Source: Squalus acanthias (taxonomy: Eukaryota). Taken from it: a stretch of DNA of 64,000 nt. Made by a program: the position numbers and the translations under genes. The notes below the pieces were generated by a model. It ran no database searches and was not told the DNA's origin. It saw nothing but the letters and a program-made list of their open reading frames with translations. Shown here piece by piece: positions 4,716-64,000 of the stretch. The stretch's first letter is position 1. Each line of letters begins with the position of its first letter. The DNA lies in the NCBI GenBank assembly GCA_030390025.1, contig CM059431.1:110362001-110426000 (forward strand), in the 5' to 3' direction.

Positions 4716-4968
4716 AGGACTGAGATGAGAAGAAATTTCTTCACTCAGTGGGTTGTGAATCTTTGGAATTCTCTACCCCAGAAGGCTGTGGATGGTCAGT
4801 CGTTGAGTATATTCAAGGCTGGGATCGATAGATTTTTGGACTCTGGAGGAATCAAGGGATATGGGGATCGGGTGGGAAAGTGGAGTTGAGGTCAAAGTTC
4901 AGCCATGATCTTATTGAATGGCGGAGCAGGCTCGAGGGGCCGTATTTCTTACGTTCTTATGTTCTTAT
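4716..4968 (+). mobile_element. CR1 LINE 3' end fragment
   Basis: Closely matches 1375-1640; TTCTTATG tail. Confidence 0.8.
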
Positions 4969-5084
4969 AAATAAGCAAATTTAATGAACAAAAGATGATC
5001 AAGTGATTATATAACAGTAATGTCTATAGATTATTAATATTCTTGTGTAGGGCATGCACTTACTGTCGACAAACTTGGCAAACA

Positions 5085-42098: not shown

Positions 42099-43313
42099 AC
42101 TCCATGATCATTGGAGATGCTATCCTCAGGAAGTTTGGTTGGCAACTTCCAGGACAGCCTGACAAGTCTGTATATAACTACACTGGAATTTGTAAAGCTT
42201 TATTTCTTCTTTTAAGGTGCGGAGGTGGTACTCCCTTTGTCCGCTACCAGGTGAAATGTCACTGTGGCTGAGGTCTGAAATTTAGGTGCATATTGAAACC
42301 AGGTTCAGTGATATATAGCTTTTCCAATACGCAATATACTTACCAGTAACTCAAAATGTCGCTGTACATGACAGGTATTTATATAATTTAAGTTACTTTA
42401 GTCAGCTGTATACTGAGTGGATCTGCTGAAACAGGCCTGATTATGCGTATTGTTATATCTGCTTCCAGCTAGGCGTGCGGCTTGGCTGTTCTGTGTCCCA
42501 ATAAATTATCCAACTATGTCCACATTCCATCTAAACAGGATAATGAAGAACAACTTGAAGCTTGTCCTGAACATCTGTTAGAATTCGCCTTATATATCTG
42601 TTGTGTCTCCAGCTGTGCGATGTCGTTTGTGTGATATCTTAGCCAAACAATGGCAAGCTCTCCCTCTCACTGTAGCCCTTCTTGTAATTCCTGGTGAGGT
42701 TCTTCTAAATCAGTGGCTATCTGGCTTGTCCATCTCCAGCCTATGCATGAGTATTGGAGCAAGCAAATATTTTATTATAAAATCAACGGAACGGAAAAAA
42801 ATATATTAATCAGCTTCATTGACCTTCACACTTCCCTGTCGTAAACTGGAGGTGCATTTAGGACTCAATTCTCCAAACATTTGCTGATAGTTTTATTTGA
42901 GTTCTTACACTTGAGATGAAGGTAAACCATTAGAATCCATCATTCACCTGCTAACAAATCCAGTTAGGAACAGTTCTAGTCAATTGACTTACTGAATTAT
43001 GAGCTGAGATTTAAGCACACTGGTGAACCTTCTTTGTATTGAGCTTAATTATTCAGCCACTAAATTGGTGCAGAGTGCTTGCTGCAAATAGCTTTTGTTC
43101 CTATGACACAAAATGTCACTTATCTGAACAAACAAGAGCAAACTCCTGTTCCCACACCATAGACAGAGTACAGGTGCTAAACTAAAAATTGTTTTAGTTT
43201 GTTATTTATAAAAACTTTGATGGATGTCCAAGATGTATCTTTTTGAGGTTTTTTTTCAATAAAATTATTTCTCTTCCACCTTTTACGATCTTCCCGGGCC
43301 GTACAGAAATAGT

Positions 43314-43665
43314 GGCCCCGGTATTTACAGAGAGGCGGGGAGGGTGCGAGGGAGGCCGAAAACAGCCGAAGAACCTTTAGGCCAGGTCACAGAGGTCCTG
43401 CCGAACTTAACGGCAGGATTTTATTGTCATTATTTGGATCCGTTTCCCACCCAGCCGCCGATCAAATTGACAGCCTGGCCGACGGCCTGGGGGGGATCAA
43501 CCAGCAGCAGGCGGCCACAGCCGGGGACGGTCCCCGACAATCGGGAGGAGAGAAGGTCGGCCATCATAGCGGGGGTAAGGGGGAAGAAGGGGGAGAAGGT
43601 TGGCGATAGGGATTAGGGGAGCGAGAGGCAGCGATTGGCAAGGGTGTAGGCCGAAGGCTTCCTTG
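43314..43665. mobile_element. Left half of a GC-rich MITE split by the provirus
   Basis: GGCCCCGGTATTTAC terminus; the sequence resumes at 56490 after the CTTG TSD. Confidence 0.5.
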
Positions 43666-45336
43666 TGTAAGGGTTTTGACCCGTGTGGCTCTGTGCTCAG
43701 CCTGGGTGCTAGTGCGAGGTTAGGCCTTGTTGCCTGTTCTGGTCTCCAGCCAGTCTGGGAGCACTAGACACCTGTGAGTGGTTCGACCCACTCGCCCTTA
43801 CGGTTCTGACACTGGACTTAGATGCGAGAGCAATAATGGAGAGAAAACTCAGGTAGACCCGGTTGAATGGTACGAAATGGAAAATCTTTATTGCATATTA
43901 TTCAAGATTACGAAATACATGTCATAAGCACAGATTAATGACAGTACAATCTTACACGCAGTTATGTAACTAATTTCAGGGAAACGAGGAACGAACGACA
44001 CATCGTAAATGGGGGCACACATTACAGTTATCCTTAAAACTTAAACCCTCCCCTATCAATACCTGCTCTAAACTAGATTTGTAGGATCGAGACTCATGCT
44101 CACCACTCGTGATAACTCGGAGAATTCCGAAAACTCTGCTCGGATGTTTTTACCGCAGCACCTGATCACCCACGTGTTGATCAGGGGTCTCTGTACCCCA
44201 CTTGTTTACTCGTTTCTGCTCCGGCTAGCAGGCTGGACTGTCTGCTGTCATGAAGATCTGTGTTGTTCTCGGAGTTCCGACACTACTCAAAAAAAAAAAG
44301 TCTTCCTGTGCCCTCGCCCTGATGCGATAAAACTCGAAGAATAGTCTTCCGATGCCAGTTCTGTAAAGCTCAAAAGATAGTCTTCCTGGGCAAGGAAATT
44401 GTCTATTTGACCTACAGGCGCGGTCGGGGCTTACTGACCGTGGCGAAACGTATGGTCGTCTTCTTCTCTTCTCATCTCATCTCATCTCATCTCGGGCCTT
44501 CGGTTCCAACACCGTTTACCGACTTCTCGGGATGGTGTGCCCATTTCAAGGCTTCACAGCCCAGTTCCACACAGATCTTCGCGGCAAGCCACGAGGCTGA
44601 TTCTGGCGGATCAGAAAGTTCAACAGTCTTTCAGCAAGTCAAACAGCAAGAGCTGCAAGAGGCAGAGGCACGATGCAAGCGGCAAGAGGCAGGAGAATAA
44701 GAGAAAGATGGACGGTTGTAGTTTACAGTTATAGTGCTGAAACTCTTCTTTTCCCGCCCAACCTTAATGTCTTTTCTTTTGTTAGGGTTTTGGCGCTCAA
44801 ATTTCTTGTATAGGGTGATCTCCGTTTTAATGGGTTTCGGGGATACTCGTAACTGTCTGAGTACCTGTTAATATTTTTCCCATTGTGTAACCGGTCAGTA
44901 TTCTCCCTGGAGGGGTTTTGGGGCTTCCAAATGTTTTCTGTAACTACCCGCAAACGGCTCTCTCATCGTAGAGTCGTGGGGATTTTGCATATTAATGTCT
45001 TTGGATGGGTTCTCGATCGCTTGGTACAATAGCCCTTATTCGCACCTGGGAGACCGATTTCAGTATTTATGTGTATACTGCAAACCCATAATGTCTCGTG
45101 TATTATCTCAAATGTGCTGAGTCTTGATCGATCTCGCACAAATGTTTATTGGAACGCCATCTTGTCTGCTTATCGAAAAGTCTAGAATGTTCTGCCACGA
45201 GGCGTGGCGGCCATTTTACAGGCTGCTTGTGTCCACTTTGAAAACCTGACAGCATTCTGCTGAAATAAAGCTGTTTGAACGAAACTATGTGTTTTCTCCT
45301 TATTTATAAAATCGCGATTATATTGCGAATTCTACA
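43666..45336 (-). repeat. 3' LTR (1671 bp)
   Basis: Direct repeat of 54819-56489; TG...CA ends; AATAAA on the minus strand at 43887-43892. Confidence 0.97.
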
Positions 45337-45347
45337 GTCCCTCCTGT
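45337..45347 (-). promoter_or_regulatory. Polypurine tract
   Basis: ACAGGAGGGAC immediately before the 3' LTR on the minus strand. Confidence 0.7.
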
Positions 45348-45783
45348 TGATGCGAATAACTCCGCTTATCGTATCAAAAATATTGTGGTGAACAATATTA
45401 TCTCAATTTCTCCAGATCCAGAAAAATAATCCCCATAACTTAAACTATCTAGGGTCTTTGCGTCGTCCTTATTTCCCAGGAAAATTACATTCTTATAACA
45501 CCGCAGGCATTATTTGCCTTTAAACTTACACCACTTGTTTTCCTTCCAGGCATAACCAGGCCGATGCCTCTCGTATCACCTGTATATTCACATTTTTTTT
45601 TGGGAAAAGAAAAACAAAACAAAACCAAACAATCATATTCAACAAAAACACCATCACCAAAATAATCAAAACCAACTCTTAAACATGTCGAGTTCCAAAC
45701 GTAATTACAGTTTCTGAAAAATCACGATCGATTACAACACTTCCGAGGCGCACGTGGCAAACGGGAATGACGCCATTTTCTGA

Positions 45784-48135
45784 TTACACGGTGCTTTCAT
45801 CGTGCACGCGCACGTTACGTTCTCGCCACTCTCCCGTGTTTTCGTTCTTGGTGAGGCGTTTGCCTCTCTTACAATGTACGACCAATAAGTATACCACAAT
45901 AAACACTTGGCATACAACTAAAATGTGGGAGGCTATTCTAATCCAGGAAGGCACTTCAATGTTGGTGAACAGATTCCACCACGGTGGAATTACTATGTCC
46001 AGAATGTCTGTCCCTATTTCGACAGTTTTCTGCTCTAGTGTGTAAAAATGTTTTTGTGACACCGCGACGGCTTTTAAAAGCTTGGTGAGGTGTTCAGGGA
46101 GAGGGGGAATGAGGTATCCGAAATGCGCGACGAATCGCTGCAGGTCGGTGAAGTTCTCTTTTACGGTGAGATGAACCGTGGATGGTTCAGGGATTGGGAC
46201 AATTCGCTGTTGTGCTACTTGAACTTCCGCCCTGGGTTTGAAACAGAAACTGCTGTCACTCACCGGACACCGGCTACGGTTTCCATGCTGGTAGTGTTGC
46301 GCTGCAGTGGTAACACAATATGTTCCACCCCCGATGTATGCTACCTGCGGAGGCACATGATCTTGTGCCATTGCCTCCATGGTGCAATTCATGGACTTGG
46401 CACCAGCCGTTCTGAACCCGCACTGTGGTGTTAAAAAGGCATTCAAGTGCTGGGGACACAGTATTATGTGTGCTCCCCTGCCACGACAACCAGAGAGATC
46501 TGTACCTGTCATCGTTTGCTCCCAGCGGATGACGTAAGGTGGAACCGCTGCATAGCGAATGTGGGCTCCCCCCTGAATGACACCAATGTTCTCTACCCGA
46601 TACACCGGGGCGGGCTTTGCTGTGTCGCCCAAAACCGGCATACGTAACACTATACCCATAATGGTATGATTTGACCGTCCGCAGTCCACGGGGACTGGGT
46701 ATGCTTCTGAAGCTAGCCTGAGCTGGCACGGGCTTAATGCGTTCTGAAAAGGGTGGAGCGCCCGCAGGTGTTTGTTACTTATCCAGGACGGGACCAAACC
46801 TTGTTTTAAATCCTCCAAATTACTGCGGCCCTCGCCCAGTAACCACGCCCCGTAAAGCACGCACACCTCATTCTGCGCAGCTTGATCGGATGCATTCCGA
46901 TCTTCCCTAATCAGGGCATTTACCGTTCTCGCGTGTTTCTCTAGTTCAGCTATTATTTCTTTTAAATGTAGAGTCATGGCTTGGTCCTCGTGTAACCCAG
47001 ACCCAACCACCTTATTTTCATCTGTGAGAATGTCCTTTAATTGCGTTTTTAAGCCATTAATCTGGGTCTGCAGCTCCACGCTGTCTAGAGCGTTGACCAC
47101 AGATGTACCTGTGTTGAAAGCAGTGAACGCGTCGTTCACAACACCCCTTCTTTGTCTCCCCACCTGATCCAAAACTTCCTGTGGTGCGGTGTACAAACTT
47201 GTTTTATCAATTTCCGCGAAATCGAATTCGTAAAATTGTCTGAACATCTTGGTCAACAGGACCTGATATAACTGCTCCGTCTTTTTGGGGCACCACTCTG
47301 GTAACCGCACCTCGGTGAGATTTAAAATCACCGAGGCCACCGCGTAATGTACCCCCTGAAATAGTATCTGGTCTGTGGGGACCAGTACCAAACCATTCCC
47401 GGGTCCCTTACTGGTTTTAGGGCACCCTTCTTCCTTAGCTAGAACCACCGGAATCGTGGGCGGGGCTTTGCGTGGGCGCGTAATGAGTTCAGTGGCATTT
47501 ACCGGGATCGGGGAGAATGGGGCTCCGCACTCCCTGGTGCTCGCATCCCACCTCATCCCCTGTCCGTTATCCTGCCATTGATTAATGAAAAATATGGAGA
47601 TGCCTTTGGGGCAAACGTACTTTGACCCCCACATACATACATAAATTCCCTCATCCGGTTCCCACCATTTGTCCCAACAGACTCTCACTTGTCCGTTTGT
47701 CCCCGTAATTGTCCGATGGGTATTATTACCCAGTCGTTCCCACTTGACCGAAGAGTTCCTCATGTTTTTGCTCAGCTTTCGTAGCCACCACCATCGGCTC
47801 AATGGGACATTCCCACTACAAGTCAAACAAATCCGTTTGCCGACGGTGACGCTGATCCTGGGTGCGATGATCCTTACTTTGGGGCACAGTAAAGAAGTCT
47901 CTTGGTAGGCAAACCCCGATGTGCTGGAATACTCCGTTGAGTTCGTTCCCAGCCATCCTGGCCACCTTCCCTTGTGGAAATAGGTGGTGGTCTCCTCAGC
48001 CTCCCGTCTTCCGGTCCCATCCACCGCGATGGGGGCCGTGTCCCCGGAGCATCCAAACACCACGACATCCTTGGTGCGGCCTCGATAGGCCAATCCACAT
48101 CCGATTGCCGCGAGCAATACTAGAATTCGTTCCAT
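45784..48135 (-). CDS. env: Envelope glycoprotein, class I fusion (F-like), 783 aa
   Basis: Signal peptide MERILVLLAAIGCGLA; N-glycosylation sequons; furin site RQRR (aa 327-330) followed by a fusion-peptide-like segment and heptad repeat; Cys-rich region; C-terminal TM ILVVCQVFIVVYLLVVHC; short basic tail. Confidence 0.9.
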   Translation of the reverse strand: MERILVLLAAIGCGLAYRGRTKDVVVFGCSGDTAPIAVDGTGRREAEETTTYFHKGRWPGWLGTNSTEYSSTSGFAYQETSLLCPKVRIIAPRISVTVGKRICLTCSGNVPLSRWWWLRKLSKNMRNSSVKWERLGNNTHRTITGTNGQVRVCWDKWWEPDEGIYVCMWGSKYVCPKGISIFFINQWQDNGQGMRWDASTRECGAPFSPIPVNATELITRPRKAPPTIPVVLAKEEGCPKTSKGPGNGLVLVPTDQILFQGVHYAVASVILNLTEVRLPEWCPKKTEQLYQVLLTKMFRQFYEFDFAEIDKTSLYTAPQEVLDQVGRQRRGVVNDAFTAFNTGTSVVNALDSVELQTQINGLKTQLKDILTDENKVVGSGLHEDQAMTLHLKEIIAELEKHARTVNALIREDRNASDQAAQNEVCVLYGAWLLGEGRSNLEDLKQGLVPSWISNKHLRALHPFQNALSPCQLRLASEAYPVPVDCGRSNHTIMGIVLRMPVLGDTAKPAPVYRVENIGVIQGGAHIRYAAVPPYVIRWEQTMTGTDLSGCRGRGAHIILCPQHLNAFLTPQCGFRTAGAKSMNCTMEAMAQDHVPPQVAYIGGGTYCVTTAAQHYQHGNRSRCPVSDSSFCFKPRAEVQVAQQRIVPIPEPSTVHLTVKENFTDLQRFVAHFGYLIPPLPEHLTKLLKAVAVSQKHFYTLEQKTVEIGTDILDIVIPPWWNLFTNIEVPSWIRIASHILVVCQVFIVVYLLVVHCKRGKRLTKNENTGEWRERNVRVHDESTV

Positions 48136-48148
48136 CCTTCCTTGGTTC

Positions 48149-48170
48149 CTGTGATCAGATAGAATGAGGT
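48149..48170 (-). promoter_or_regulatory. Candidate env splice acceptor
   Basis: ACCTCATTCTATCTGATCACAG|G with 13 nt before the env ATG. Confidence 0.55.
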
Positions 48171-48254
48171 AGCCAGCCTCGCAAGAGTCTCTGATTTTGT
48201 GAAGGGTGAGCGGGTCCCCTGACCTCGCCTCACGTAAGAAGACATGTGCGCTGG

Positions 48255-48450
48255 ATAAACTTTAACTAATCCTATCTCTAAAACTCCCATCATTTTACAT
48301 CCTTAAACAAAATTAAACTACCGACTTAAACCGATTTAAAACTATAACCTTATAACCTTATCTAAAACTATAAACTTATTCTTAACCTTAAACTATAAAC
48401 TTATTCTTAACCTTGAACTATAAACTTAGAAACTTATCCTAAACTTATTA
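48255..48450. repeat. AT-rich imperfect tandem repeats in the pol-env spacer
   Basis: Recurring AACTATAAACTTATTCTTAACCTT units (~25 bp). Confidence 0.75.
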
Positions 48451-48484
48451 CTGTACAGCGCCGCCCATTCCCAGGGCGGCCCAT

Positions 48485-51400
48485 TTAAATTCTGAAAAGG
48501 CTGCCACGAGCCTTTCCCGACGGTGGGAGGGCATTGACCCCTCCCTTTGATCTGCCGCAGCCTGTTGCTGCTGCGCTGGGACTGGGCTCTCCCTGGGCTG
48601 CCTTAACCTTGAGCCTACGCCTTGGGATACTCTGGGGACTTGACCATACCTTCCTGGGCTGGGGTATCCGACCTGACCTACGGAGAGTTACCGGGGGCAG
48701 GAACTCCAGGACCGACGGACCGGGTTCCGAGACTTCCACCGTGGCGACCTGTGGTCCCGCCACAGTCGCTGGCTCCGCCTCCCCTGGCTCCGCCTCCCCT
48801 GGCTCCGCCTCCCTGAACTCGGGATCTGCAGCTTGTGGCACTGCCCTACTCGGCCCAGTAGGCGGCCCTTCACTCGCAGTCCCTACCTCCCTCGAGGGCA
48901 GGACGTTCAAGGCGGGCGGCTCGGGCTCTGAGGCTTCCTTCGCCACGCCCTGTGGTCCCATCACAGCGGCTGGCTCCGCCTCCCCTGGCTCCTCCCCCCT
49001 GCGTTCGGGACCTGCAGCTTCGGCTTCCACCCTGTGTGGATCTCTATCTGCAGCCCCTGTCCCCCCTATACCTGAATCGGGGGCGACCCTTTCGTCCTCC
49101 GATTCCAGCTCTTCCTCGTCACTATCTTCACTATCCTCACTTTCACTATCTTCGTCGAGCTCCTTGAACTCACCCTCATCTGACTCCCAACCCCACAAAA
49201 ATGTCTCATAATTTTCCAGGATGTCCCCTTCCCTGATGCAAGCTGCTTTGCCTGCCTGTGTGCCCTGTGGCCCTACCTGGGGCTGCGAGTCCCCACTCGC
49301 AGGTTTTGCCCCTGTGGTTGGCCCTTGTGTACCTGGCTTGTACAGTTTGCACTGGTTTACGTGGAACCACTTAGTGCGCCGAGGTACCTTTACGGCGTAT
49401 ACCATGGGACTCGCCTTATCTACAATGTTGTAGGGTCCCATATACAGTGGTTCCAGACTCCCTACTCTGGCGTAGTTTCTGACCATGACCTGGTCTCCTA
49501 CTTCCCACTCCCGCGTTTTGCGGGGTTCCAGCAACAGGCGATTGCCCTGATGCTGCCTTCCCATGTTCCCAGCCGCCTGCTCATAAACCTGTTTCAGGCG
49601 CTCCAAGAGGGTCTGGACGAACTTGTCCCTGCTTATCTCTTGGAGCTGACCCTCAGTGAGCACCGGCGCTAGCACATGGGTGGGGGTTCGCATGATCCTC
49701 CTAGTCATCACCTCGTGCGGGGAATACCCCGTACTTTTCGACTGACTGGCCCGGACCCCCATGAGGACAAAAGGCAGAACCTCCGCCCATTTTTGGGGCG
49801 AGTTCATAGTCTCTTTCCTCAATTTCTCCTTCAGGGTCCGGTTCATGCGTTCAACAATCCCGGATGACTGGGGATTGTGCGCTACGTGCCATTTCCCTTC
49901 AATGCCCAAAAGCATGAGGGTGTTCTGCATCACCTGGCCGGTGAAATGACTCCCTTGGTCTGACTCCACAAAACGGGGGAGTCCCCACCGTGAGAACACT
50001 TCCCGGACCAAGATTTTTGCAGTACCCAGTGCCGTAGCTGTTCTACAGGGGAAGGCTTCCACCCATTTGGAAAACACATCCACCAAGACGAGGCAGTATT
50101 TATAGCCTCCCTGGGTGGTGGGCAGGGGCCCTATATAGTCGATCTGTATCGACTGCCATGGTCCCTCTACCCTCCTGACGTGCCCCATGGGCACTTTCCT
50201 TTTCTGGGGGTCTGGGTTGTTTGCAGCACACACGAGACAGCTTGCACAGAACTCGCGGACCTGTTCCCTGAGCCCCGGCCACCATCCCGCTTGCTCTACC
50301 CGTTGCCAGGTAACCTCGGGCCCGGGGTGCCCTGCCCCTGGTCCCTCGTGAGCCAACTGGAGGAATTCCCTCCTGTGCTGCTGCGGCACAACCCACTGCT
50401 CCTCGCGGAACAGCATGCCTTCCTTAACTGAGAGGGTTGCCGTACTGTACGGACCCTCTACCTGCTTCCCCTCAGCAAGGGTTTTGAGGACTGCTTTTAG
50501 GGCGGGATCCTGGTTCTGGACGGTCTTAAGGTCTCGGGGCAATGCTACCCTGGTGTTCCCGGGATTCCCGTCCCTGCCTTGGATCGCTGCCATGGGTCTG
50601 GGCCCATAGGGGTCCCAGAAAATGCCGTTGCGGGCACCTTCCCTGGCTAGCGCATCCGCCTGCTGGTTGCCTTCCCCAAGGGGCTCTGTGGAGGAGTGAG
50701 CCTTCACCTTATGGATGAAAATCTCCCCTTCCTCACCTACTGCTGCTAGGATCTTTTCCAGCAAGGGCTTCACCGTTAAAGGTCGCCCGTCCGCGGAGGT
50801 GTATCCACGGCGGGACCAAATGGCCAGGTATTCCGTACACGAATTGCATGTGAACATACTGTCCGAGCAAATCGTGTATGGGGTTGGGAAAATTTCTGGG
50901 TGGGTAACGACGTACACCACTGCAGATAGCTCAGCCTGCTGCGCGCTCATGGTGCTAGGGAGCTTGATCGCCAGGGCAAGGTTTGCCGCAGGGTCATAAA
51001 CTCCACACCCTGTGAGTCGTTCGCCAGCGGACACTGTGCTGGAACCATCAACATAAATCTCGCGCCCAGTGGGATGTATCCCGGCCCGCAAACCTATGTT
51101 GACTTCCCACACCCCTTCCACCGAACACTGGTGGGCTGTACCGGGGTATACCAAATTGGCCGCAAGCCTGGGCTCGCAAAGACCTTTAACTCTAAGATCC
51201 ATCTGGGAAAGAAGAAGGGTCCAGCGCGCAATACGCACGCTGCTTACGGTCCCATCTTTAATCCTCCCATCTAGAAGCATCTTAGTTGGTGTGTGATGGG
51301 TGAGGAGAGTGATGGGAGAGAGCCCTGTGAAGATCGCTGATCTTTTCACAGCCCAATGCGTGGCTAAAAGGCGCCTTTCGCAATTGGAGAAACTTCTCTC

Positions 51401-53008
51401 CACATCCGTTAACACCCTGGACGAATAGACAACCGGCCTCAGCTTGCCGTGGCGCTCTTGGAGCAGCACAGCGCTCAAGCTGTCTCCGCTGGCAGCTACC
51501 TCCAGGAAAAACTCCTTCCCCCCATCTATGGCCCCTAAAGCTGGCGCGGTCTGCAAATCCCTTTTTAACTTCTCGAAGGCTGCTTGGCAGCCCTCGTCCC
51601 AAGACCACTCCACTCCCTTATGGAGGAGTCGGAGCAGCGGCGCCGCTGTGGCCGCATAGTCTTCGATAAAATCCCTGCAGTAACCGGTCAGTCCCAAAAA
51701 GGACCTCACACCCCTTATGGTGTTGGGAATCGGTAACTCTTGCACCGACTCCCTCCTAGCCTTATCTATGGCTCTTTCCCCAGCGCGAATGGTCAGCCCC
51801 AGGAATTTTACTTCCTGCTGACCGATACGTGCTTTCTTAGGGTTCACTTTAAAACCCTTTCTCGCTAGCAGCTCCAATAATTCGGCCAGCAGTGGTCCAT
51901 GCTCCTCCCTTGAATCCGTAAATAGGAGCAAATCATCCACGTACTGCACTATCTGATTGGGCTGACTAAACTCCTTTAAACTTCCTGCCATACACTGATG
52001 GAAAATACTGGGGCTGTTGTGGAAACCCTGTGGCAGACAGTTCCATGTGTACTGTTGTCCTTTGAAAGTAAAGGCAAACTTGTACTGGTCCTCTCGCCGC
52101 AGCGGGATGGACCAAAAACCGTTCGAGATATCCAGCACCGTGAATGTGGTCGCGGACGCTGGGATACTCCCTATTAGGTCAGCGACTGCTGCTACCGTGG
52201 GCGCGCAGGCGGGAATGTTACTGTTAAGGACTCTGTAGTCCACCGTGGCCCTCCACGAATTATCCGGCTTCCTAACCGGCCATAATGGGGAGTTCACGTG
52301 TGTGGCTATCGGCCTCAACACGCCCTGCTGCACCAAGGAGGACATTGCTGTCTCCATATCGGGTTCTGCTTCTTTGGGGAAGTTATACTGCTTTTGGGGC
52401 CGGGTCATGGGGTCCCCATCTACGCTGACCTCAAACCCGGTAACCCTCCCACAATCGTGCTTGTGGGTTGCAAACGCGTGCATATTATCTGACACATACG
52501 TTTGCATGTCCGTTGGGACATCCGCGACCATAAGCCCGAGGTCGTAGCCTCCGGATGGCTTCATGGTACACAGGGCCCCTGTTTCTTCCTCCCCCGGAAT
52601 TACCACTACCTCGCCGTCTCCACCCTTAGCCCCCCAGAGACAGTGATTCCTGAGGTCCACGAGGATCCCGTGCCCTGATAGGAGATCGGACCCGAGGATA
52701 CCTCTCCCACCCCCCTCATGCCATTTCATCAGTATGCACTTCCACGTGATGTGGAGTGTTCCTAAACGAATGGATAGCGGAAGGGAGAACGCGCCAGCCT
52801 GTTCTTTTCCCGTGAACCCCGCTAATGTGAATGGGACCTTGGTAGATAGCGGTGAGTCAAAAGGGCTATCTGTATGAATCACGGTGCAAGAAGCTCCCGT
52901 GTCCAACAAATAACTACCCTTCTGTTGCTCTACCTCCATCTCCACCAGGGGTCGCTTCCACGCATCATAGCTGAGCGGACACAGGTAGACGGGCTGCGCG
53001 GGCTCTAG
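48485..53008 (-). CDS. pol: Pol polyprotein: protease, RT, degenerate RNase H/tether, RNase H, integrase, acidic tail
   Basis: LLDTGAS; VLDISNGFW, LPQGFHNSP, YVDD; EVAAS...YSSR; YVDGS...AEL...SDS...KAH...NQQAD; HHCC, DDE and GPY. The frame is open from the gag stop at 53009. Confidence 0.95.
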   Translation of the reverse strand, partial: LEPAQPVYLCPLSYDAWKRPLVEMEVEQQKGSYLLDTGASCTVIHTDSPFDSPLSTKVPFTLAGFTGKEQAGAFSLPLSIRLGTLHITWKCILMKWHEGGGRGILGSDLLSGHGILVDLRNHCLWGAKGGDGEVVVIPGEEETGALCTMKPSGGYDLGLMVADVPTDMQTYVSDNMHAFATHKHDCGRVTGFEVSVDGDPMTRPQKQYNFPKEAEPDMETAMSSLVQQGVLRPIATHVNSPLWPVRKPDNSWRATVDYRVLNSNIPACAPTVAAVADLIGSIPASATTFTVLDISNGFWSIPLRREDQYKFAFTFKGQQYTWNCLPQGFHNSPSIFHQCMAGSLKEFSQPNQIVQYVDDLLLFTDSREEHGPLLAELLELLARKGFKVNPKKARIGQQEVKFLGLTIRAGERAIDKARRESVQELPIPNTIRGVRSFLGLTGYCRDFIEDYAATAAPLLRLLHKGVEWSWDEGCQAAFEKLKRDLQTAPALGAIDGGKEFFLEVAASGDSLSAVLLQERHGKLRPVVYSSRVLTDVERSFSNCERRLLATHWAVKRSAIFTGLSPITLLTHHTPTKMLLDGRIKDGTVSSVRIARWTLLLSQMDLRVKGLCEPRLAANLVYPGTAHQCSVEGVWEVNIGLRAGIHPTGREIYVDGSSTVSAGERLTGCGVYDPAANLALAIKLPSTMSAQQAELSAVVYVVTHPEIFPTPYTICSDSMFTCNSCTEYLAIWSRRGYTSADGRPLTVKPLLEKILAAVGEEGEIFIHKVKAHSSTEPLGEGNQQADALAREGARNGIFWDPYGPRPMAAIQGRDGNPGNTRVALPRDLKTVQNQDPALKAVLKTLAEGKQVEGPYSTATLSVKEGMLFREEQWVVPQQHRREFLQLAHEGPGAGHPGPEVTWQRVEQAGWWPGLREQVREFCASCLVCAANNPDPQKRKVPMGHVRRVEGPWQSIQIDYIGPLPTTQGGYKYCLVLVDVFSKWVEAFPCRTATALGTAKILVREVFSRWGLPRFVESDQGSHFTGQVMQNTLMLLGIEGKWHVAHNPQSSGIVERMNRTLKEKLRKETMNSPQKWAEVLPFVLMGVRASQSKSTGYSPHEVMTRRIMRTPTHVLAPVLTEGQLQEISRDKFVQTLLERLKQVYEQAAGNMGRQHQGNRLLLEPRKTREWEVGDQVMVRNYARVGSLEPLYMGPYNIVDKASPMVYAVKVPRRTKWFHVNQCKLYKPGTQGPTTGAKPASGDSQPQVGPQGTQAGKAACIREGDILENYETFLWGWESDEGEFKELDEDSESEDSEDSDEEELESEDERVAPDSGIGGTGAADRDPHRVEAEAAGPERRGEEPGEAEPAAVMGPQGVAKEASEPEPPALNVLPSREVGTASEGPPTGPSRAVPQAADPEFREAEPGEAEPGEAEPATVAGPQVATVEVSEPGPSVLEFLPPVTLRRSGRIPQPRKVWSSPQSIPRRRLKVKAAQGEPSPSAAATGCGRSKGGVNALPPSGKARGSLFRI

Positions 53009-54814
53009 TCATTGGGTACTATTAGACGGGGCTGTGGCACCTGCGGGGCTGGTAGCAACCGCCACTTTTCCATGCGCACTCATGAGGTTACGCATGGCTC
53101 CCAACACTGTTTCGATCGCGTCGGGATGGATGGGTGTACTAGCTTCCCTATCAGAGACAGGCGCCTGGGCTCGGGCTGCGGGATTTTTATCCCTGGAATC
53201 CTTCCAAGGGTTCCTGCAGTTCTTGCGCCAGTGCCCTGTCTTCCCACACCCGTAACAAGCATTACTGGCCTGCGGGGCGCGGTTACCCTCCTGATGCCAC
53301 TCCTTTTGAGCCGGGGCTGCGGGTCGTGCCTCATGCACCTTTCCCTTAAGGGGACGTGCTCCCATACTTCTGGTATTACGGTACCCCACCGTGAGTCGAT
53401 TTAGGACCGACTCCTCTGTAGTGGTGGGGTCCGTGGGATCAAACCACGCTTTTGCCTGCTCCCTGACGGCTGGCAAACTGTTGGCTACTATACACCTGAG
53501 CCAATGAGTTAAACCGATGTCTGCCACATCGGCGCGCTCTGGCGCACCTGGGCAGCTACGCTGGTATACTGGCCACAGACTGGCGGCGAAAACCTTCGGG
53601 GGTTCTCCCTCCATCTGCACTGTCTGTCCCAGTCTAACAAACGGACCTTCATCGTCCGCTCCCAATACTTCTAGGACCTCATTTCTTAGTGCCCCATAGG
53701 TCTTAGTTCCCCTCTTGCTCTCGTCTGAGAGACACTGAAGGATCGAACTACCTAATGAGAATAACAGCATCTTTGCTGTTTCCCCATCGTCGCAGCCGTT
53801 AATGGCTGCGGTTTGCTCTATTTCCCTAAAATGTACGGAAGGGTCGTCTGACTCGGCCAGCTTCGGTACGTGACTGATCATAATCCTCAGCTGGTGTGAG
53901 CTGTGAGGCAACACAAGCTGGTTGAGGAGATCCCCTTGTTCCCCACCGTCTCTGTTCGGGCCCCTTTTGATACCCGTGACCGGACACAACGGTCCCGGTT
54001 CCACTTCTACCTCGGCGGGCTCTTTCGTTACTTCTACCACTTTCTCCCTTACCCAGGTTTCCGAATAGCTGGGTGGCGCGGAGGGCGTAGTGGCTAATAC
54101 TTCCTCTGCTTTGTTTGGTGGGGATTTCTGAAATTCCTCATCCACTAGCGGCTGGTGTGCTGACGGACTGATAAGGCACACCATGCCGTGCGCTTTGTTC
54201 ACGGCCCTTTTAAGGTGCTCTATCTCCTTTTGGCAGACGCTGTGATCGGCCCCCTGAAATTTATCCTCGAGGGCCATCTTATATGCCGCCCTAACCCCCG
54301 TTAAGCTCTCTTCCTGGGCTTTTATTTGGGCAGCTTGGCGGGCACATCGTTCCTTTAATCTGCCCTCACTTAACTTTGCCTCAGTGACCTGGTACTCGAG
54401 GTAACCTATTTTTGCTTTATGGTGGTTGGTGACTACCTGGCGTTCTTGATGCAACGCATTTAAAGTCGTGATGAGCTGCTGCCTCCCCGCGACCTTCTCG
54501 TCCATTTCCACCTCTAAACGCCTGATCCGAGCTGCTTGCGCTGTAATGACCTGGTCCGAAATTTGGACTTCTCTTTTATAGCACATCAGCCAGACCGCTT
54601 TCTCCACTGCCTTTTTATGTTCTTTGCTATCTGTCCACCTCTCGGCTGCCTCTAGTGGACACTTATCCACCAGCAGGTCACTTATCCATTTCTTAGTCAA
54701 ATTTACTTTTCCGAACACATAATCTGCTATTCTGTCTTCCATGACATTTCGCCCAATCATACCAAAGTCTAACACATTACCCTCTCGCTGCCAGTGTCCT
54801 GCCGCGGTCGCCAT
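53009..54814 (-). CDS. gag: Gag polyprotein, 601 aa
   Basis: Position after the 5' LTR; N-terminal coiled coil; PSAPPSY late domain; capsid-like region; CYGCGKTGHWRKNC CCHC zinc knuckle. Confidence 0.92.
   Translation of the reverse strand: MATAAGHWQREGNVLDFGMIGRNVMEDRIADYVFGKVNLTKKWISDLLVDKCPLEAAERWTDSKEHKKAVEKAVWLMCYKREVQISDQVITAQAARIRRLEVEMDEKVAGRQQLITTLNALHQERQVVTNHHKAKIGYLEYQVTEAKLSEGRLKERCARQAAQIKAQEESLTGVRAAYKMALEDKFQGADHSVCQKEIEHLKRAVNKAHGMVCLISPSAHQPLVDEEFQKSPPNKAEEVLATTPSAPPSYSETWVREKVVEVTKEPAEVEVEPGPLCPVTGIKRGPNRDGGEQGDLLNQLVLPHSSHQLRIMISHVPKLAESDDPSVHFREIEQTAAINGCDDGETAKMLLFSLGSSILQCLSDESKRGTKTYGALRNEVLEVLGADDEGPFVRLGQTVQMEGEPPKVFAASLWPVYQRSCPGAPERADVADIGLTHWLRCIVANSLPAVREQAKAWFDPTDPTTTEESVLNRLTVGYRNTRSMGARPLKGKVHEARPAAPAQKEWHQEGNRAPQASNACYGCGKTGHWRKNCRNPWKDSRDKNPAARAQAPVSDREASTPIHPDAIETVLGAMRNLMSAHGKVAVATSPAGATAPSNSTQ
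54796..54813 (-). promoter_or_regulatory. Primer binding site, tRNA-Ser-like (tentative)
   Basis: TGGCGACCGCGGCAGGAC, 5 nt after the 5' LTR; TGGCG....CGGCAGGA resembles the complement of vertebrate tRNA-Ser 3' ends, with mismatches. Confidence 0.65.
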
Positions 54815-54818
54815 TTTC

Positions 54819-56489
54819 TGTAAGGGTTTTGACCCGTGTGGCTCTGTGCTCAGCCTGGGTGCTAGTGCGAGGTTAGGCCTTGTTGCCTGTTCTGGTCTCC
54901 AGCCAGTCTGGGAGCACTAGACACCTGTGAGTGGTTCGACCCACTCGCCCTTACGGTTCTGACACTGGACTTAGATGCGAGAGCAATAATGGAGAGAAAA
55001 CTCAGGTAGACCCGGTTGAATGGTACGAAATGGAAAATCTTTATTGCATATTATTCAAGATTACGAAATACATGTCATAAGCACAGATTAATGACAGTAC
55101 AATCTTACACGCAGTTATGTAACTAATTTCAGGGAAACGAGGAACGAACGACACATCGTAAATGGGGGCACACATTACAGTTATCCTTAAAACTTAAACC
55201 CTCCCCTATCAATACCTGCTCTAAACTAGATTTGTAGGATCGAGACTCATGCTCACCACTCGTGATAACTCGGAGAATTCCGAAAACTCTGCTCGGATGT
55301 TTTTACCGCAGCACCTGATCACCCACATGTTGATCAGGGGTCTCTGTACCCCACTTGTTTACTCGTTTCTGCTCCGGCTAGCAGGCTGGACTGTCTGCTG
55401 TCATGAAGATCTGTGTTGTTCTCGGAGTTCCGACACTACTCAAAAAAAAAAAGTCTTCCTGTGCCCTCGCCCTGATGCGATAAAACTCGAAGAATAGTCT
55501 TCCGATGCCAGTTCTGTAAAGCTCAAAAGATAGTCTTCCTGGGCAAGGAAATTGTCTATTTGACCTACAGGCGCGGTCGGGGCTTACTGACCGTGGCGAA
55601 ACGTATGGTCGTCTTCTTCTCTTCTCATCTCATCTCATCTCATCTCGGGCCTTCGGTTCCAACACCGTTTACCGACTTCTCGGGATGGTGTGCCCATTTC
55701 AAGGCTTCACAGCCCAGTTCCACACAGATCTTCGCGGCAAGCCACGAGGCTGATTCTGGCGGATCAGAAAGTTCAACAGTCTTTCAGCAAGTCAAACAGC
55801 AAGAGCTGCAAGAGGCAGAGGCACGATGCAAGCGGCAAGAGGCAGGAGAATAAGAGAAAGATGGACGGTTGTAGTTTACAGTTATAGTGCTGAAACTCTT
55901 CTTTTCCCGCCCAACCTTAATGTCTTTTCTTTTGTTAGGGTTTTGGCGCTCAAATTTCTTGTATAGGGTGATCTCCGTTTTAATGGGTTTCGGGGATACT
56001 CGTAACTGTCTGAGTACCTGTTAATATTTTTCCCATTGTGTAACCGGTCAGTATTCTCCCTGGAGGGGTTTTGGGGCTTCCAAATGTTTTCTGTAACTAC
56101 CCGCAAACGGCTCTCTCATCGTAGAGTCGTGGGGATTTTGCATATTAATGTCTTTGGATGGGTTCTCGATCGCTTGGTACAATAGCCCTTATTCGCACCT
56201 GGGAGACCGATTTCAGTATTTATGTGTATACTGCAAACCCATAATGTCTCGTGTATTATCTCAAATGTGCTGAGTCTTGATCGATCTCGCACAAATGTTT
56301 ATTGGAACGCCATCTTGTCTGCTTATCGAAAAGTCTAGAATGTTCTGCCACGAGGCGTGGCGGCCATTTTACAGGCTGCTTGTGTCCACTTTGAAAACCT
56401 GACAGCATTCTGCTGAAATAAAGCTGTTTGAACGAAACTATGTGTTTTCTTCTTATTTATAAAATCGCGATTATATTGTGAATTCTACA
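54819..56489 (-). repeat. 5' LTR (1671 bp)
   Basis: Direct repeat of 43666-45336; only three substitutions noticed by eye. Confidence 0.97.
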
Positions 56490-56873
56490 CTTGAGAGGCC
56501 GGTGGAGCACCCCTGCTCCTCCTGGTCCACAAGGTGTGTTGGATGGGACACTTGCCTTGTGGCACCAGCAGCTCCCATCTCCCTTTCACTGCCGGGTTTC
56601 CCGAACCCTGGGAAACCGGTGCAGCAGCAGTGAATTTGAAATCAGGCTCCCAATTATACTGTCGGAGCCCAATTTAAATATGTTGATGAAGTGCGCCGCC
56701 TCTCCATGGCAGGACACTCGGATGCCACAAAACCCACCGGCGTAATAACGGCAATGTGTGTGCGCGCGGCAGGATAGGGTCGCGTTTTGCGCATTTGACG
56801 GTTTAACCTCCCCCGCCCCCCTCCCCCCCCCGTCATCCTCTCCCTCCCATCATGGAGGGGCTAATATTGAGGC
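56490..56873. mobile_element. Right half of the MITE split by the provirus
   Basis: GGAGCACCCCTGCTCCTCCTGG motif shared with other MITEs in the window (e.g. ~12520); ends GCTAATATTGAGGC. Confidence 0.5.
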
Positions 56874-57326
56874 AAGTGACTAAGAGGGCAATTGTATGAA
56901 CTGAGCCAGTTACAAGGGAGGCACTCGAGAGTGGAATGGTGATCTCGTTGTCCCTGATTGCTAGCGGTGCTTCCCCAACACTGTAGGAGTTCGTGGACGT
57001 GACTGCACATCCTGCCGCTGCCTGGCATTGTCGGTTTGAGGTCCAACACTTTCCGATGGATGCTTACTTGCTGTCGTGTCTGACATCCAATCCTATTTCA
57101 GCCCAACACCAGCATGTTCTTCAGTGTAGAATAAAAGTTGCGATTCTGAATGGTCATATATTTTGTATATATCAGAAATGTGTCACCCTATTCTTAATAC
57201 AGCTTTAAGACAAATTCCGGTCTCCCCTAGATACCACTTGGGTTCAAGTGCTTTCGGTTGCTCCCTCAAGTGGTCTGAGCTTCTCATTTCTGTGAAGTTG
57301 AAGCTCACTGCACTATATCTACTGGA

Positions 57327-57558
57327 AAGATTTGCATTTATATAGCGCCTTTCACAACCACCGGACGACCCAAAGCACTTTACAGCCAATGAAATACTTT
57401 TGAAGTGTAGTCACTGTTGTAATGCAGGAAACGCGGCAGCCAATTTGTGCACAGCAAGCTCCCACAAACAGCAATGTGATAATGACCAGATAACCTGTTT
57501 TAGTGATGTTGATTGAGGGATAAATATTGGCCCCAGGACACCGGGGAGAACTCCCCTG
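57327..57558 (-). mobile_element. DeuSINE 3' half, reverse strand
   Basis: Reverse complement of the SINE core and tail. Confidence 0.75.
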
Positions 57559-60881: not shown

Positions 60882-62035
60882 CTAGAAGTGGCTTGTTATC
60901 AGCCGTTGACGGACGGCCCTTGCAGTGGCAACATTGTGGGCCTCCCTCCCACCTGGGCGCTGCTGCTGATCATCCTCCTCATCCGCCTCCTCCTCCTCCT
61001 CTTCCTCCTCTTCCTCAGGTGGTGCACCAATCCCTGGTGGCATTGGCTGTGTCCTCAGGATTGCCAGGTTGTGAAGCATGCAGCACACAACTATGAAGAG
61101 GGAGATTCGCTCAGGCGAGTACTGCAGGGCTCCTCCTGAGTGGTCCAGACAGCGGAACCGTTGCTTGAGCACGCCGATCGTCTGCTCAACGATGTTCCTG
61201 GTGGCGATATGGCTCTCGTTGTACCGCAGCTCAGCAGGGGTGTTGGGGTTACAGAGCAGTGTCATCAGCCAGGTGCAGAGTGGATAACCCTTGTCCCCGA
61301 GGAGCCAACCACTTGGCTGATGCGGTGCCTGGAAAAGCTCTGGCACACCAGTCTGGCGCACTGATGAAAGCATCGTGGCTGCTGCCAGGATAGCGGGCAT
61401 TGACAGCGAGTATCAGCTGAGTGTGGTCACAGACCAACTGGACATTTAAGGAGTGGTAACCCTTGCAGTTTCGGAAAACCTCTGCATTTTCATGCGGTGC
61501 CCGCAATGCCACATGCGTGCAGTCAATGGCGCCCTGCACCATGGGGAAGCCCGCTATCCTCGCAAAGCCACATGCGCGCTCATGCTGTTTGGCCTGTGTC
61601 ATCGGGAAAGAGATGTACTGGCGTCTCCTTTTATAGAGGGCATTTGTCACCTCCCGGATACAGCAATGGACCGCAAACTGGGAGATATTGGCGATGTCCC
61701 CAGTAGCTGCTTGAAAGGAGCCGCTGGCATAAAAATTCTGAGCCACTGTCACCTTCACAGACGTCCTGGTCCTCAGTTGAGGCTGCAGATCTGGTTGCAG
61801 CAGGTGGCAGAGCTCAGTGACCACCTCCTTGCTGAAGCGCAGCCTACACAAACACTGCTCCTCAGACAAATGAATGTAGGAGAATTGCTCCCGGAATACC
61901 CTGGGAGGGTAAGGTCTCCTGGGCAGAGGCCTGTTGGCCCTCCTCCCTCTGGCCATGTTTGCCACTCTCTCTGCGTCTCTGATGCCTCCAATTCTGCAGG
62001 TGCAGGACGACGTCCCGAATCAGTGCAGCCCCCAT
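60882..62035 (-). pseudogene. Harbinger (HARBI1-like) DDE transposase, frameshifted
   Basis: [54 protein letters not shown] and CCMLHN; frame switch at ~61362 and probably another near 61970. Confidence 0.88.
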
Positions 62036-62501: not shown

Positions 62502-64000
62502 ATCAATAAAAAAAAGGAAGTTTGGGATGGGAATAGGGCCATTAAGGGATAGACAGGCAGCGATAGAGAGATGGCAGAAATATTGAATAATTATTTTGCT
62601 TCAGTATTTACCAGGGAGATAGAACAGGTTGACATGACATTGGATCATGAGATTAGTAATGAGGTAAGTGCATTTAAAATAAAAAGAGGGGATATATTAA
62701 ATAAACTAATCAAACTCAAAGAGGATAAAACCCCTGTTCCGGATGGATTGCATCCACGCATTTTAAAATAATCCAGGGAAGAGATAGCAAAGGCATTACT
62801 ACACATATTTAATAATTCATTAGAAAGAGGACTGGTGGATAGCTAACATAATACAGTACCTATATTTAAGAAGGGGGATAGAACATGACCAGGGAACTAT
62901 AGACCAGTCAGCTTAACAGCTTAACATCGGTGGTAGGAAAAATAATGGAATCCCTACTAAAGAAGAAAATAGAAGAACATCTAGAAACCAAAAACATAGT
63001 AATGACTAGTCAGCATGGATTTCAAAAGGGAAAGTCTTGCTTGACCAACCTCATTGAATTTTTTGAAGAGGTATCAGAGCGAGTAGACAATGGTAATGCA
63101 GTAGATGTAATTTATCTGGATTTTCAATAAGGTACCCCATGATAGACTGATGAACAAGGTCAGAGAACGCGGAGTCAGGGGACAAGTAGCAGAATGGATA
63201 GCTAGCTGGCTTCAAGGCAGAAAGCAGGGAGATGGGGTAAAAGGTAGCTATTCACAGTGGCAGAAGGTGGGTAGTGGTGTTCCACAAGGATCAGTGCTGG
63301 GACCACTGCTGTTCACAATTTATATTAACAATTTAAACTTTGGAATCAAAAACACAATTTCTAAATTTGTGGATGACACCAAATTGAGGGGGATAGTCAA
63401 TACTGAGGAGGACTGCAACAAATTACAGGAGGACATTCATAAACTTGCAGAATGGGCATATAATTGGCAAATGAAGTTCAACACAGATAAATGTGAGGTA
63501 TTACATTTTGGTAGGATGAATAGGGAGGTCACTTATCACTTGGAGGGTGTGTGTCTGGGTGGGGTAGAGGAGCAAATGGATCTCGGAGTACAAATACACA
63601 AATCACTAAAAGTTGTGACACAGGTAAGCACGGCCATAAAAAAAGCAAACCAAGCACTAGGGTTTATTTCTAGAGGTATAGAATTGAAAAGTAGGGAAGT
63701 TATGCTAAACCTGTGTCGAACCTTGGTTAGACCACACTTGGAGTATTGTGTACAGTTCTGGTCGCCATATTATAAAAAGGATATAGAGGCACTGGAGAGG
63801 GTACAGAGAAGATTTACAAGGATGATACCAGAAATGCGAGGGTATACATATCAGGAAAGCTGAGGGTGACCTATTAGAGGTCTTTAAAATTATGAAAGGT
63901 TTTGATAGAGTAGATACAGAGAGAATGTTTCCACTTGTGGGGAAGAGCATAACGAGAGGCCATCAATATAAGACAGTCACCAAGAAATCCAATAGGGAAT
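62502..64000 (+). mobile_element. CR1 LINE ORF2 (degraded), runs off the window end
   Basis: [21 protein letters not shown] and RPHLEYCVQFWSP; same family as 5085-7190. Confidence 0.92.

Follow-up and report, generated by a model that had tools for sequence, protein, structure and literature searches.

Vertebrate endogenous retroviruses (ERVs) that resemble snakehead retrovirus (SnRV) have been described from several host classes. They form a recognized clade in the coelacanth, amphibians, zebrafish, and some reptiles (PMC4977317), and "class III SnRV-related" Pol proteins have been noted in anamniotes (bioRxiv 10.1101/2021.11.23.469661). They have also been reported in cartilaginous fish, where lineage I of the elephant shark ERVs (CmiERVs) clusters with SnRV (Han 2015, PMC4422223). 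Lokiretroviruses, by comparison, were sought in six chondrichthyan genomes and none was found (Wang and Han 2020, PMC7947760, Fig. S1), and our own literature search for lokiretroviruses in cartilaginous fishes returned incidental co-mentions only. A further point of reference is the foamy virus envelope, whose solved structure has a fold like that of the paramyxovirus fusion protein F (PMC11468914). Against this background, we analyzed a 64,000-nucleotide (nt) stretch of Squalus acanthias DNA (assembly GCA_030390025.1, contig CM059431.1, positions 110,362,001 to 110,426,000 of the forward strand), which we call the window, and which holds a provirus of 12,824 nt on its minus strand at 43666-56489. 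This element is most likely a further member of the already known SnRV-like class III grade, not a lokiretrovirus. We put at roughly four in five the probability that it is a recently integrated, intact provirus of the canonical Retroviridae, placed in the class III grade that includes SnRV and the foamy viruses, with ERVs of the coelacanth and frogs as its nearest kin and with a simple organization that includes no accessory open reading frame (ORF). Its chief interest is that a canonical retrovirus carries an envelope protein (Env), predicted to be of the F type, that is homologous to the Env of SnRV, and that it belongs to a huge, young family in which env is still constrained. The features of the provirus, with their positions in the window, are as follows.

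43662-43665, no strand: left target-site duplication CTTG; the same CTTG lies immediately outside each long terminal repeat (LTR)
43666-45336, minus strand: 3' LTR, 1,671 nt, TG...CA; ungapped alignment to 54819-56489 with 3 mismatches
45337-45348, minus strand: polypurine tract AACAGGAGGGAC, adjoining the 3' LTR; read from the sequence, with a putative function suggested by its position
45784-48135, minus strand: env, 783 amino acids (aa); uninterrupted ORF, standard code
48485-52939, minus strand: pol, 1,484 aa; uninterrupted ORF, standard code, with Pfam domains and likeness to SnRV Pol
53009-53011, minus strand: lone in-frame TGA between gag and pol, the presumed read-through site, from frame analysis
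54814-53009, minus strand: gag, 601 aa counted from the first ATG; uninterrupted ORF, standard code
54796-54813, minus strand: primer-binding site (PBS) TGGCGACCGCGGCAGGAC for tRNA-Arg(TCG); complement of the host tRNA 3' end
54819-56489, minus strand: 5' LTR, 1,671 nt, from the LTR-LTR alignment
56490-56493, no strand: right target-site duplication CTTG, as on the left

The anatomy given by the sequence-only reading, a complete LTR-gag-pol-env-LTR element with target-site duplication, PBS, polypurine tract, and three uninterrupted ORFs, agrees in its coordinates and parts with our repeat search, ORF analysis, Pfam matches, and tRNA match. The LTR pair, located by a direct repeat search and compared base by base, aligns without gaps over 1,671 nt, and both LTRs have TG...CA termini. 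Only 3 of the 1,671 sites differ (44174, 45298, and 45326), in keeping with the claim of a young insertion; two of the differences are CpG transitions. The PBS starts 5 nt past the 5' LTR and is complementary at 18 of 18 positions to the 3'-terminal 15 nt of the host tRNA-Arg(TCG) genes followed by CCA. A 20-nt tRNA-Arg(TCG) pattern matched the host genome 435 times and the control not at all, and ARAGORN called tRNA-Arg(tcg) at all three loci scanned. These host genes are arranged in long tandem arrays, repeating approximately every 1,623 nt and alternating with tRNA-Ser(GCT) (for example, at 40.46-41.88 Mb of one contig). Frame analysis found no sense-strand ORF of at least 80 aa between env and the 3' LTR, no second copy or solo LTR was found elsewhere in the 64-kb window, and an Rfam scan of 43000-57200 gave no match.

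The Pol protein has the domain order of a retrovirus. A protease motif, DTGA, lies at aa 13-16, and Pfam identifies reverse transcriptase (RT; RVT_1, aa 222-384), a tether (RT_RNaseH_2/RT_RNaseH, aa 447-579), RNase_H (aa 627-769), and an integrase (IN) made up of an Integrase_H2C2 zinc finger (aa 851-909), the rve core (aa 927-1023), and an SH3-like domain (aa 1158-1200). Past the SH3-like domain, Pol continues for approximately 270 aa in an acidic, proline-rich, repetitive tail (48488-49312, aa ~1210-1484) that contains a 107-nt direct repeat (48692-48798 and 48893-48999, 77% identical). The length of this tail was observed to vary among other copies of the family, with in-frame changes of +6 to -33 nt. 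When Pol was compared with solved structures, the best scores went to Ty3 Gag-Pol (242 bits, two stretches summed), RT-RNase H of xenotropic murine leukemia virus-related virus/murine leukemia virus (XMRV/MLV; 240), and foamy virus protease-RT (218), followed by prototype foamy virus (PFV) integrase (117, the best IN match) and human immunodeficiency virus (HIV) RT (~55). The nearest database Pol is 88% identical, and the next are frog, coelacanth, and Xenopus proteins at 40-45% over RT-RNase H and 55-59% in the RT core. For SnRV we used the IMG/VR record whose RT string equals the "SnRV" entry of the PMC7947760 supplement save for a two-residue difference in one loop. Its Pol is 35% identical to the provirus Pol over 690 aa spanning protease, RT, and RNase H (E 3e-111); for IN, the identity is 29% over 380 aa (E 3e-36).

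To place the RT, we built an IQ-TREE phylogeny (LG+C20+F+G4) of 55 rows by 282 columns, made up of the query, 28 database Pols (35 were tried, and 7 had no cutting motif), and 26 loci chosen, avoiding near-duplicates, from 59 IMG/VR loci with a clean RT segment that degenerate motif scans had found. Eight IMG/VR rows were labeled by agreement of their RT strings with the PMC7947760 supplement: SnRV, walleye dermal sarcoma virus (WDSV), murine leukemia virus (MuLV), koala retrovirus (KoRV), feline leukemia virus (FLV), reticuloendotheliosis virus (REV), and feline and bovine foamy virus (FFV and BFV). The remaining references are foamy, delta-, beta-, and alpha-like records, assigned by sequence and record length. 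All 48 canonical-retrovirus rows, including the query, form one clade (100/100, branch 1.51), with four Gypsy-like rows and a fish clade of three rows falling outside it. This canonical clade holds the labeled MuLV, FLV, KoRV, REV, WDSV, SnRV, FFV, and BFV as well as the delta-, beta-, and alpha-like records. The query and the 88%-identical database Pol are a 100/100 pair inside a nine-row clade (97/92) with Latimeria, Xenopus, and other frog proteins. The clade of class I and class II retroviruses (98/95, 26 rows) leaves out this query clade. It falls in a basal grade whose branching order is not resolved and whose other members are SnRV, the foamy viruses (100/100), an Astyanax group, and three single rows. 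The best tree makes SnRV the sister of the query clade, with support of 34/0 in the careful tree and a Shimodaira-Hasegawa-like approximate likelihood ratio (SH-aLRT) value of 87 in a quick tree.

The gag and pol genes lie in the same frame, and only one stop codon, the TGA of CAA TGA CTA GAG, comes between them. The stop context is identical in six of seven other copies of the pol region, and pol is open in five of the seven. No stable RNA structure was found downstream of the gag stop (z 0.02). The Gag protein has a coiled-coil region at approximately aa 80-200, the overlapping late-domain motifs PSAP (aa 244) and PPSY (aa 247), and one CCHC knuckle at aa 519-534 (zf-CCHC E 0.0035, short of the Pfam curated cut-off; match to HIV nucleocapsid at E 0.03). 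The first gag ATG (54812-54814) overlaps the PBS (54796-54813), so that there is no untranslated leader from the PBS to that ATG and the true start of Gag is uncertain; the frame stays open for 34 more codons into the LTR. Judging from the reading frame, translation may start at one of the next two methionines, Met19 or Met25.

For the envelope, structure prediction carries the argument. Env has a signal peptide (aa 1-16), an N-terminal region (aa 17-237), an F2-like part (aa 238-330) ending in the cleavage motif RQRR (aa 327-330, 47146-47157), an F1-like fusion subunit with a long central helix (aa 331-733), a transmembrane segment (aa 734-755, 45871-45936), and a 28-aa tail. A single-sequence AlphaFold (AF2) run gave a predicted local distance difference test score (pLDDT) of 33. 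Run on a 38-sequence alignment, AF2 gave a model with pLDDT values of 80-96 over aa 235-310 and 400-650 and low values over 1-231. With this model, Foldseek returned 239 matches in the PDB at E <= 1e-3, and paramyxovirus or pneumovirus F accounted for all 36 of the matches listed; the best was human parainfluenza virus 3 (hPIV3) F (E 4.8e-11, TM-score 0.51 on target). VIA-align superposed model residues 245-662 on residues 34-444 of postfusion Nipah F (Z 12.0, root-mean-square deviation 5.2, 292 residues). Across postfusion Nipah, Langya, hPIV3, and Newcastle disease virus F, Z lay between 12.0 and 11.6, and it was 8.8 for the postfusion foamy virus Env (8rm1). In BFVD, the best matches were glycoproteins of arthropod negative-strand viruses and baculovirus F, and the matches also included the Env proteins of walleye epidermal hyperplasia virus 1 (WEHV-1, 1e-10), WDSV (5e-8), and feline foamy virus (8e-5). 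Env is thus predicted to be an F-type class I fusion glycoprotein, with a domain I-III core, F2/F1-like cleavage, and a C-terminal transmembrane segment. The F-type envelope proposed in the sequence-only reading is borne out to the extent that a predicted model can do so.

An exhaustive search found 50 Env relatives at E <= 1e-3. The closest named relative is from a skate (76%), followed by a sawshark, two sharks (32% and 28%), and three frogs (19-21%), an order that fits the cartilaginous-fish host earlier thought probable. One relative has a weak Baculo_F match (E 0.0011). Among viral contigs, a pattern from a nine-sequence alignment had 18 matches, with no relative among them. Several annotated sawshark and skate "host" proteins in public gene sets are chimeric gene models that include ERV Env or RT pieces (Niban 1-like, ZFP2-like, and zinc finger protein 271-like). 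Ahead of the F2-like part, aa ~85-175 (47611-47883) bear the immunoglobulin (Ig)-like marks C..C...W and D.G.Y.C.W, and the SnRV Env has similar "Y.CMW" words. The Ig signals in this region are weak (Ig_3 E 0.33, JAM E 0.21, V-set E 0.045 in one relative; Atlas scores of 0.77-0.79, under the useful range), one shark Env relative is named "Ig-like domain-containing" in UniRef, and the AF2 model is not confident here. From these motifs, the N-terminal ~220 aa, possibly Ig-like, may be a receptor-binding domain that is absent from paramyxovirus F.

The sequence-only reading suggested a check of copy number, and this revealed that the provirus is one of many. We searched the 3.71-Gb host assembly and scored the 40 best-scoring copies per query, with the element's own copy included (two rows for the LTR). 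First-look candidate loci numbered 3,491 for a 3-kb pol query, 4,061 for env, and 5,620 for the LTR, and the other scored copies were 99% identical and full length for pol, 98-99% identical for env, and 93-98% identical for the LTR. Among scored copies, then, LTR sequence changes more quickly than coding sequence. The env sample took in 39 other copies, of which 36 keep their length and 28 are uninterrupted. For 37 env copies of equal length, mean pairwise identity was 98.4%, with dS 0.049, dN 0.0058, and dN/dS 0.12. We probed 20 copies for LTR pairs and obtained 15 full pairs, whose divergence ranged from 0.0006 to 0.0133 (median 0.0055); the provirus at 43666-56489 has 0.0018. With T = d/2u and d = 0.0018, its age would be approximately 4 million years (My) at the slow shark rate of 2.2e-10 assumed by Han 2015 (PMC4422223), or approximately 0.4 My at the mammalian rate of 2.2e-9. 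"Very young" is consequently a relative term, and the provirus is neither the youngest nor a unique copy. Our literature search on ERV copy number in skates and sharks found nothing, although preprint supplements may list the family.

Divergence between env copies (dS) is approximately 10 times that between paired LTRs, which indicates that most of the divergence predates integration and arose in a replicating lineage with env under selection. ERVs that spread inside cells tend to lose env. Because env in this family was constrained during its expansion, the pattern points to reinfection over purely intracellular copying. Public sequencing runs offer a further view of the family. In two DNA runs from one organism, summed contig depth was 4e4-3e5 on the element compared with 4-24 on the adjoining flank bins (42500-43000) and flank contigs. 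Such depths do not measure copy number, and they were higher in the outer flank bins than in those adjoining the element. Of 31-mers sampled from 45337-54818, 29-52% were present in sequencing runs of five other organisms and in some runs with no organism given. Sharing at this level would correspond to copies approximately 96-98% identical outside the host organism, and could reflect either close relatives that share the family or spread across species. Among the joints listed from Logan contigs (whose "RNA?" run labels are guesses), there was no env splice joint and no joint that skips the whole element. One 177-nt run contig ends at 43661, 4 nt short of the LTR, with 45 unplaced letters.

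The sequence-only reading called the element lokiretrovirus-like. If so, it would belong to a sister lineage of the canonical retroviruses and be the first of its kind in cartilaginous fishes, but we consider this very unlikely. The attraction of the idea is easy to see, as the published traits of lokiretroviruses include dual RNase H and also an F-type Env (PMC7947760). The nearest named Pol relatives carry the automatic names "NYNRIN-like" and "GIN1", and the same paper links lokiretrovirus IN to CGIN1. When the provirus Env and Loki-Xtr Env are compared by eye (with no tool), they have the same order of parts and short local likenesses near the cleavage site and the first heptad region, and the base of the canonical clade is not resolved in our RT tree. 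The dual RNase H that had been noted is indeed present (aa 447-579 and 627-769), but all retroviruses share it, so it does not discriminate a lokiretrovirus from a canonical retrovirus. The main evidence against it lies in RT, which nests within the canonical Retroviridae (100/100) among spuma- and SnRV-type class III lineages, an outcome that the sequence-only reading had itself named as refuting. The query has the motifs LPQGFHNSP and YVDDLLL, whereas all 19 Loki RT entries compared from the PMC7947760 supplement have [LMC]PFGY and YVDDIL[IM]. At this RT motif, the coelacanth and frog proteins of the query clade likewise do not match Loki-Lch, Loki-Xtr, or Loki-Rca. Within that supplement, the query words DISNGFWS and QQYTW occur only in SnRV entries (3/3 each), though WPVRKP occurs only in Loki-Oja (4/4). 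By-eye identities of RT blocks, again with no tool, are 42-62% to the SnRV entry compared with 30-43% to Loki-Oja. The Xenopus relative of the provirus Env is not the same protein as the Loki-Xtr Env of the supplement.

Endogenous foamy viruses have reportedly been found in cartilaginous fishes, and the provirus could be a foamy-like endogenous relative of the Spumaretrovirinae. We regard this as improbable. PFV integrase is the best solved match to the provirus IN, the quick tree unites the foamy viruses with the SnRV-like set (SH-aLRT 89), and foamy Env shares the F-like fold (PMC11468914), with the Z of 8.8 to 8rm1 given above. However, the six foamy rows of the tree are a 100/100 clade of their own on a branch of 1.1, with the query outside it. 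Foamy virus Gag has no Cys-His boxes, and foamy Pol is translated from a separate mRNA, whereas the provirus has a CCHC knuckle in Gag, and its pol continues in the gag frame after one stop codon; nor is there a bel/tas-like ORF 3' of env. The chance is slimmer still that the element is an env-carrying Ty3/Gypsy element (Metaviridae) with an F-type envelope, comparable to the invertebrate "errantiviruses". Ty3 is the top solved Pol match by total bits, baculovirus F is among the fold matches of Env, and many elements of this sort carry F-type envelopes (bioRxiv 10.1101/2023.10.26.564294). Yet the Ty3 score sums two stretches, and over RT-RNase H alone Ty3 reaches 144 bits compared with 240 for XMRV. 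A true second RNase H follows the tether, and the 100/100 branch of length 1.51 separates the query RT from the Gypsy-like rows. The same preprint reports finding no intact ERVs in vertebrates with homology to the invertebrate elements.

We therefore return to a canonical, SnRV-like retrovirus with a predicted F-type Env, and several observations weigh against this preferred reading. The sister position of SnRV is weak, and the part of the placement that is firm, as judged from the RT alignment, is "canonical retrovirus, outside class I and class II" only. The tree rows include no lokiretrovirus sequences, so the apparent exclusion of that lineage leans on the 100/100 canonical clade, the PFGY/PQGF motif, and the by-eye identities. 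The provirus and SnRV Env proteins show no significant match by BLASTP, the provirus PBS was looked for in the SnRV record and not found, and the 240-aa ORF that follows env in SnRV is absent from the provirus; this ORF is a trait of SnRV itself and maybe not of the whole clade. The F fold depends on a predicted model of mean pLDDT 61 in which residues 1-231 are effectively unmodeled. Sequence searches of Env against Pfam and the PDB gave nothing significant: the fusion glycoprotein family PF00523 did not match it even at E <= 10, nor did it match any of 15 Env relatives at E <= 1, and the best PDB sequences for the Env profile were henipavirus F at only E 0.7-1.4. The residues after RQRR, where a fusion peptide might be looked for, are only mildly hydrophobic (Kyte-Doolittle 0.53 over 19 residues from aa 331, compared with 2.5 in the transmembrane segment). 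Finally, because the scored copies of the family are the best-scoring ones, the shares of intact copies given above are biased upwards.

If the reading holds, the provirus would work as follows. Transcription would start in the right-hand LTR, and host tRNA-Arg(TCG), given its complementarity to the PBS, would prime reverse transcription. Gag would terminate at the UGA, with occasional read-through, which the frame layout would allow, yielding Gag-Pol; the UGA-CUAG context is one that favors read-through. The PSAP and PPSY motifs would recruit budding machinery, and integrase makes the 4-bp duplication, which is seen as CTTG on both sides. Env is proposed to come from a spliced mRNA, and cleavage at RQRR would leave an N-terminal subunit and, carrying the membrane anchor, a C-terminal fusion subunit. 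Because the Env core has the predicted fold of paramyxovirus and pneumovirus F, membrane fusion should proceed by refolding of the class I, F-like kind.

An F-type envelope together with dual RNase H does not make a lokiretrovirus, and a tempting misfiling is corrected here. A previously unclassified envelope, that of the SnRV type, is tied by prediction to the paramyxovirus F fold. The SnRV type would thus be a third group of canonical retroviruses with an F-like Env, beside the foamy viruses, for which the structure is solved, and the epsilonretroviruses, for which there are fold hits, and this bears on whether retroviral envelopes were captured once or repeatedly. An F-type Env in a canonical SnRV-like retrovirus, homologous to the SnRV Env and with fold matches to foamy and epsilonretrovirus Env proteins, would argue against independent captures. 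Our literature search on the SnRV envelope and paramyxovirus-type fusion found generic papers only, although here too preprint supplements may list the family. We suggest, tentatively and with more doubt than belief, that the F-type Env may be ancestral to the radiation of retroviruses and lokiretroviruses, and that the family may be the germline trace left by an SnRV-like virus whose infectivity persists or ended only very recently. The second idea, with spread through a cartilaginous fish and its relatives, draws on the thousands of candidate loci, the env dN/dS of 0.12, the LTR divergence down to 0.06%, and the shared 31-mers. Full-length elements at all of the ~3,500-5,600 candidate loci would amount to approximately 1% of a 3.7-Gb genome. 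A large, young family that retains env under purifying selection is a good natural system in which to study germline invasion, in a vertebrate class with few described ERVs.

The remainder of the window contains other mobile-element remains downstream of the provirus, namely, a DDE_Tnp_4 transposase fragment (61249-62019, minus strand, E 8e-12) and an RVT_1 reverse-transcriptase fragment (63111-63863, plus strand, E 4e-19). The segment at 57029-57500 is a very high-copy repeat, with summed contig depth of 1.9-3.9 million in DNA runs and approximately 1e5 in "RNA?" runs, far greater than that of the provirus.

Like the lokiretroviruses, the provirus has the order LTR-gag-pol-env-LTR, a tether plus RNase H, and a predicted counterpart of their Mononegavirales F-type Env with a basic cleavage site, coiled coil, and transmembrane segment (PMC7947760), while its RT motif and tree position differ from theirs. 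Loki Env reaches PF00523 by sequence (E 2.2e-7, PMC7947760), which the provirus Env does not, and by a rough count Loki-Xtr Env is only ~560 aa long, without the ~220-aa N-terminal region of the provirus Env (PMC7947760 supplement). In comparison with paramyxovirus and pneumovirus F and foamy virus Env, the predicted core of the model (245-700) corresponds to F ~26-480, with cleavage between F2- and F1-like parts, a long central helix, and a C-terminal transmembrane segment in common. The differences are a sequence identity of 6-16%, the added N-terminal region before the F2-like part, the weak hydrophobicity after the cleavage site, and the fact that this Env is encoded in a retrovirus with a Gag-Pol layout suited to read-through.

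Comparison with SnRV covered gag, pol, and env. In SnRV, gag and pol are likewise in a single frame across one stop (frames 316-2193 and 2194-6390), with the stop context TAG G where the provirus has TGA CTA G. The two Gag proteins have architecture only in common, an N-terminal coiled coil followed by one CCHC knuckle in collinear order, and both Pol proteins extend long past IN. When compared with a 38-sequence profile of the provirus Env family, SnRV Env gave an hhalign probability of 92% (E 6.6e-7, 271 columns), and the two share a CPK..GP..G motif, a basic cleavage site, and a collinear core. The SnRV Env is the larger (a 1,134-aa frame compared with 783 aa), and the LTRs of the provirus, at 1.67 kb, are a further difference. 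The SnRV-like ERVs of vertebrates, both CmiERV lineage I and the clade of the coelacanth, frogs, and zebrafish, belong to the same broad lineage and the same host classes as the provirus. Compared from the published description rather than from sequence, the CmiERVs are dated at more than 50 My with few complete copies (PMC4422223), whereas the family described here has thousands of candidate loci, an LTR divergence of 0.06-1.3%, and an env that is mostly open in our sample.

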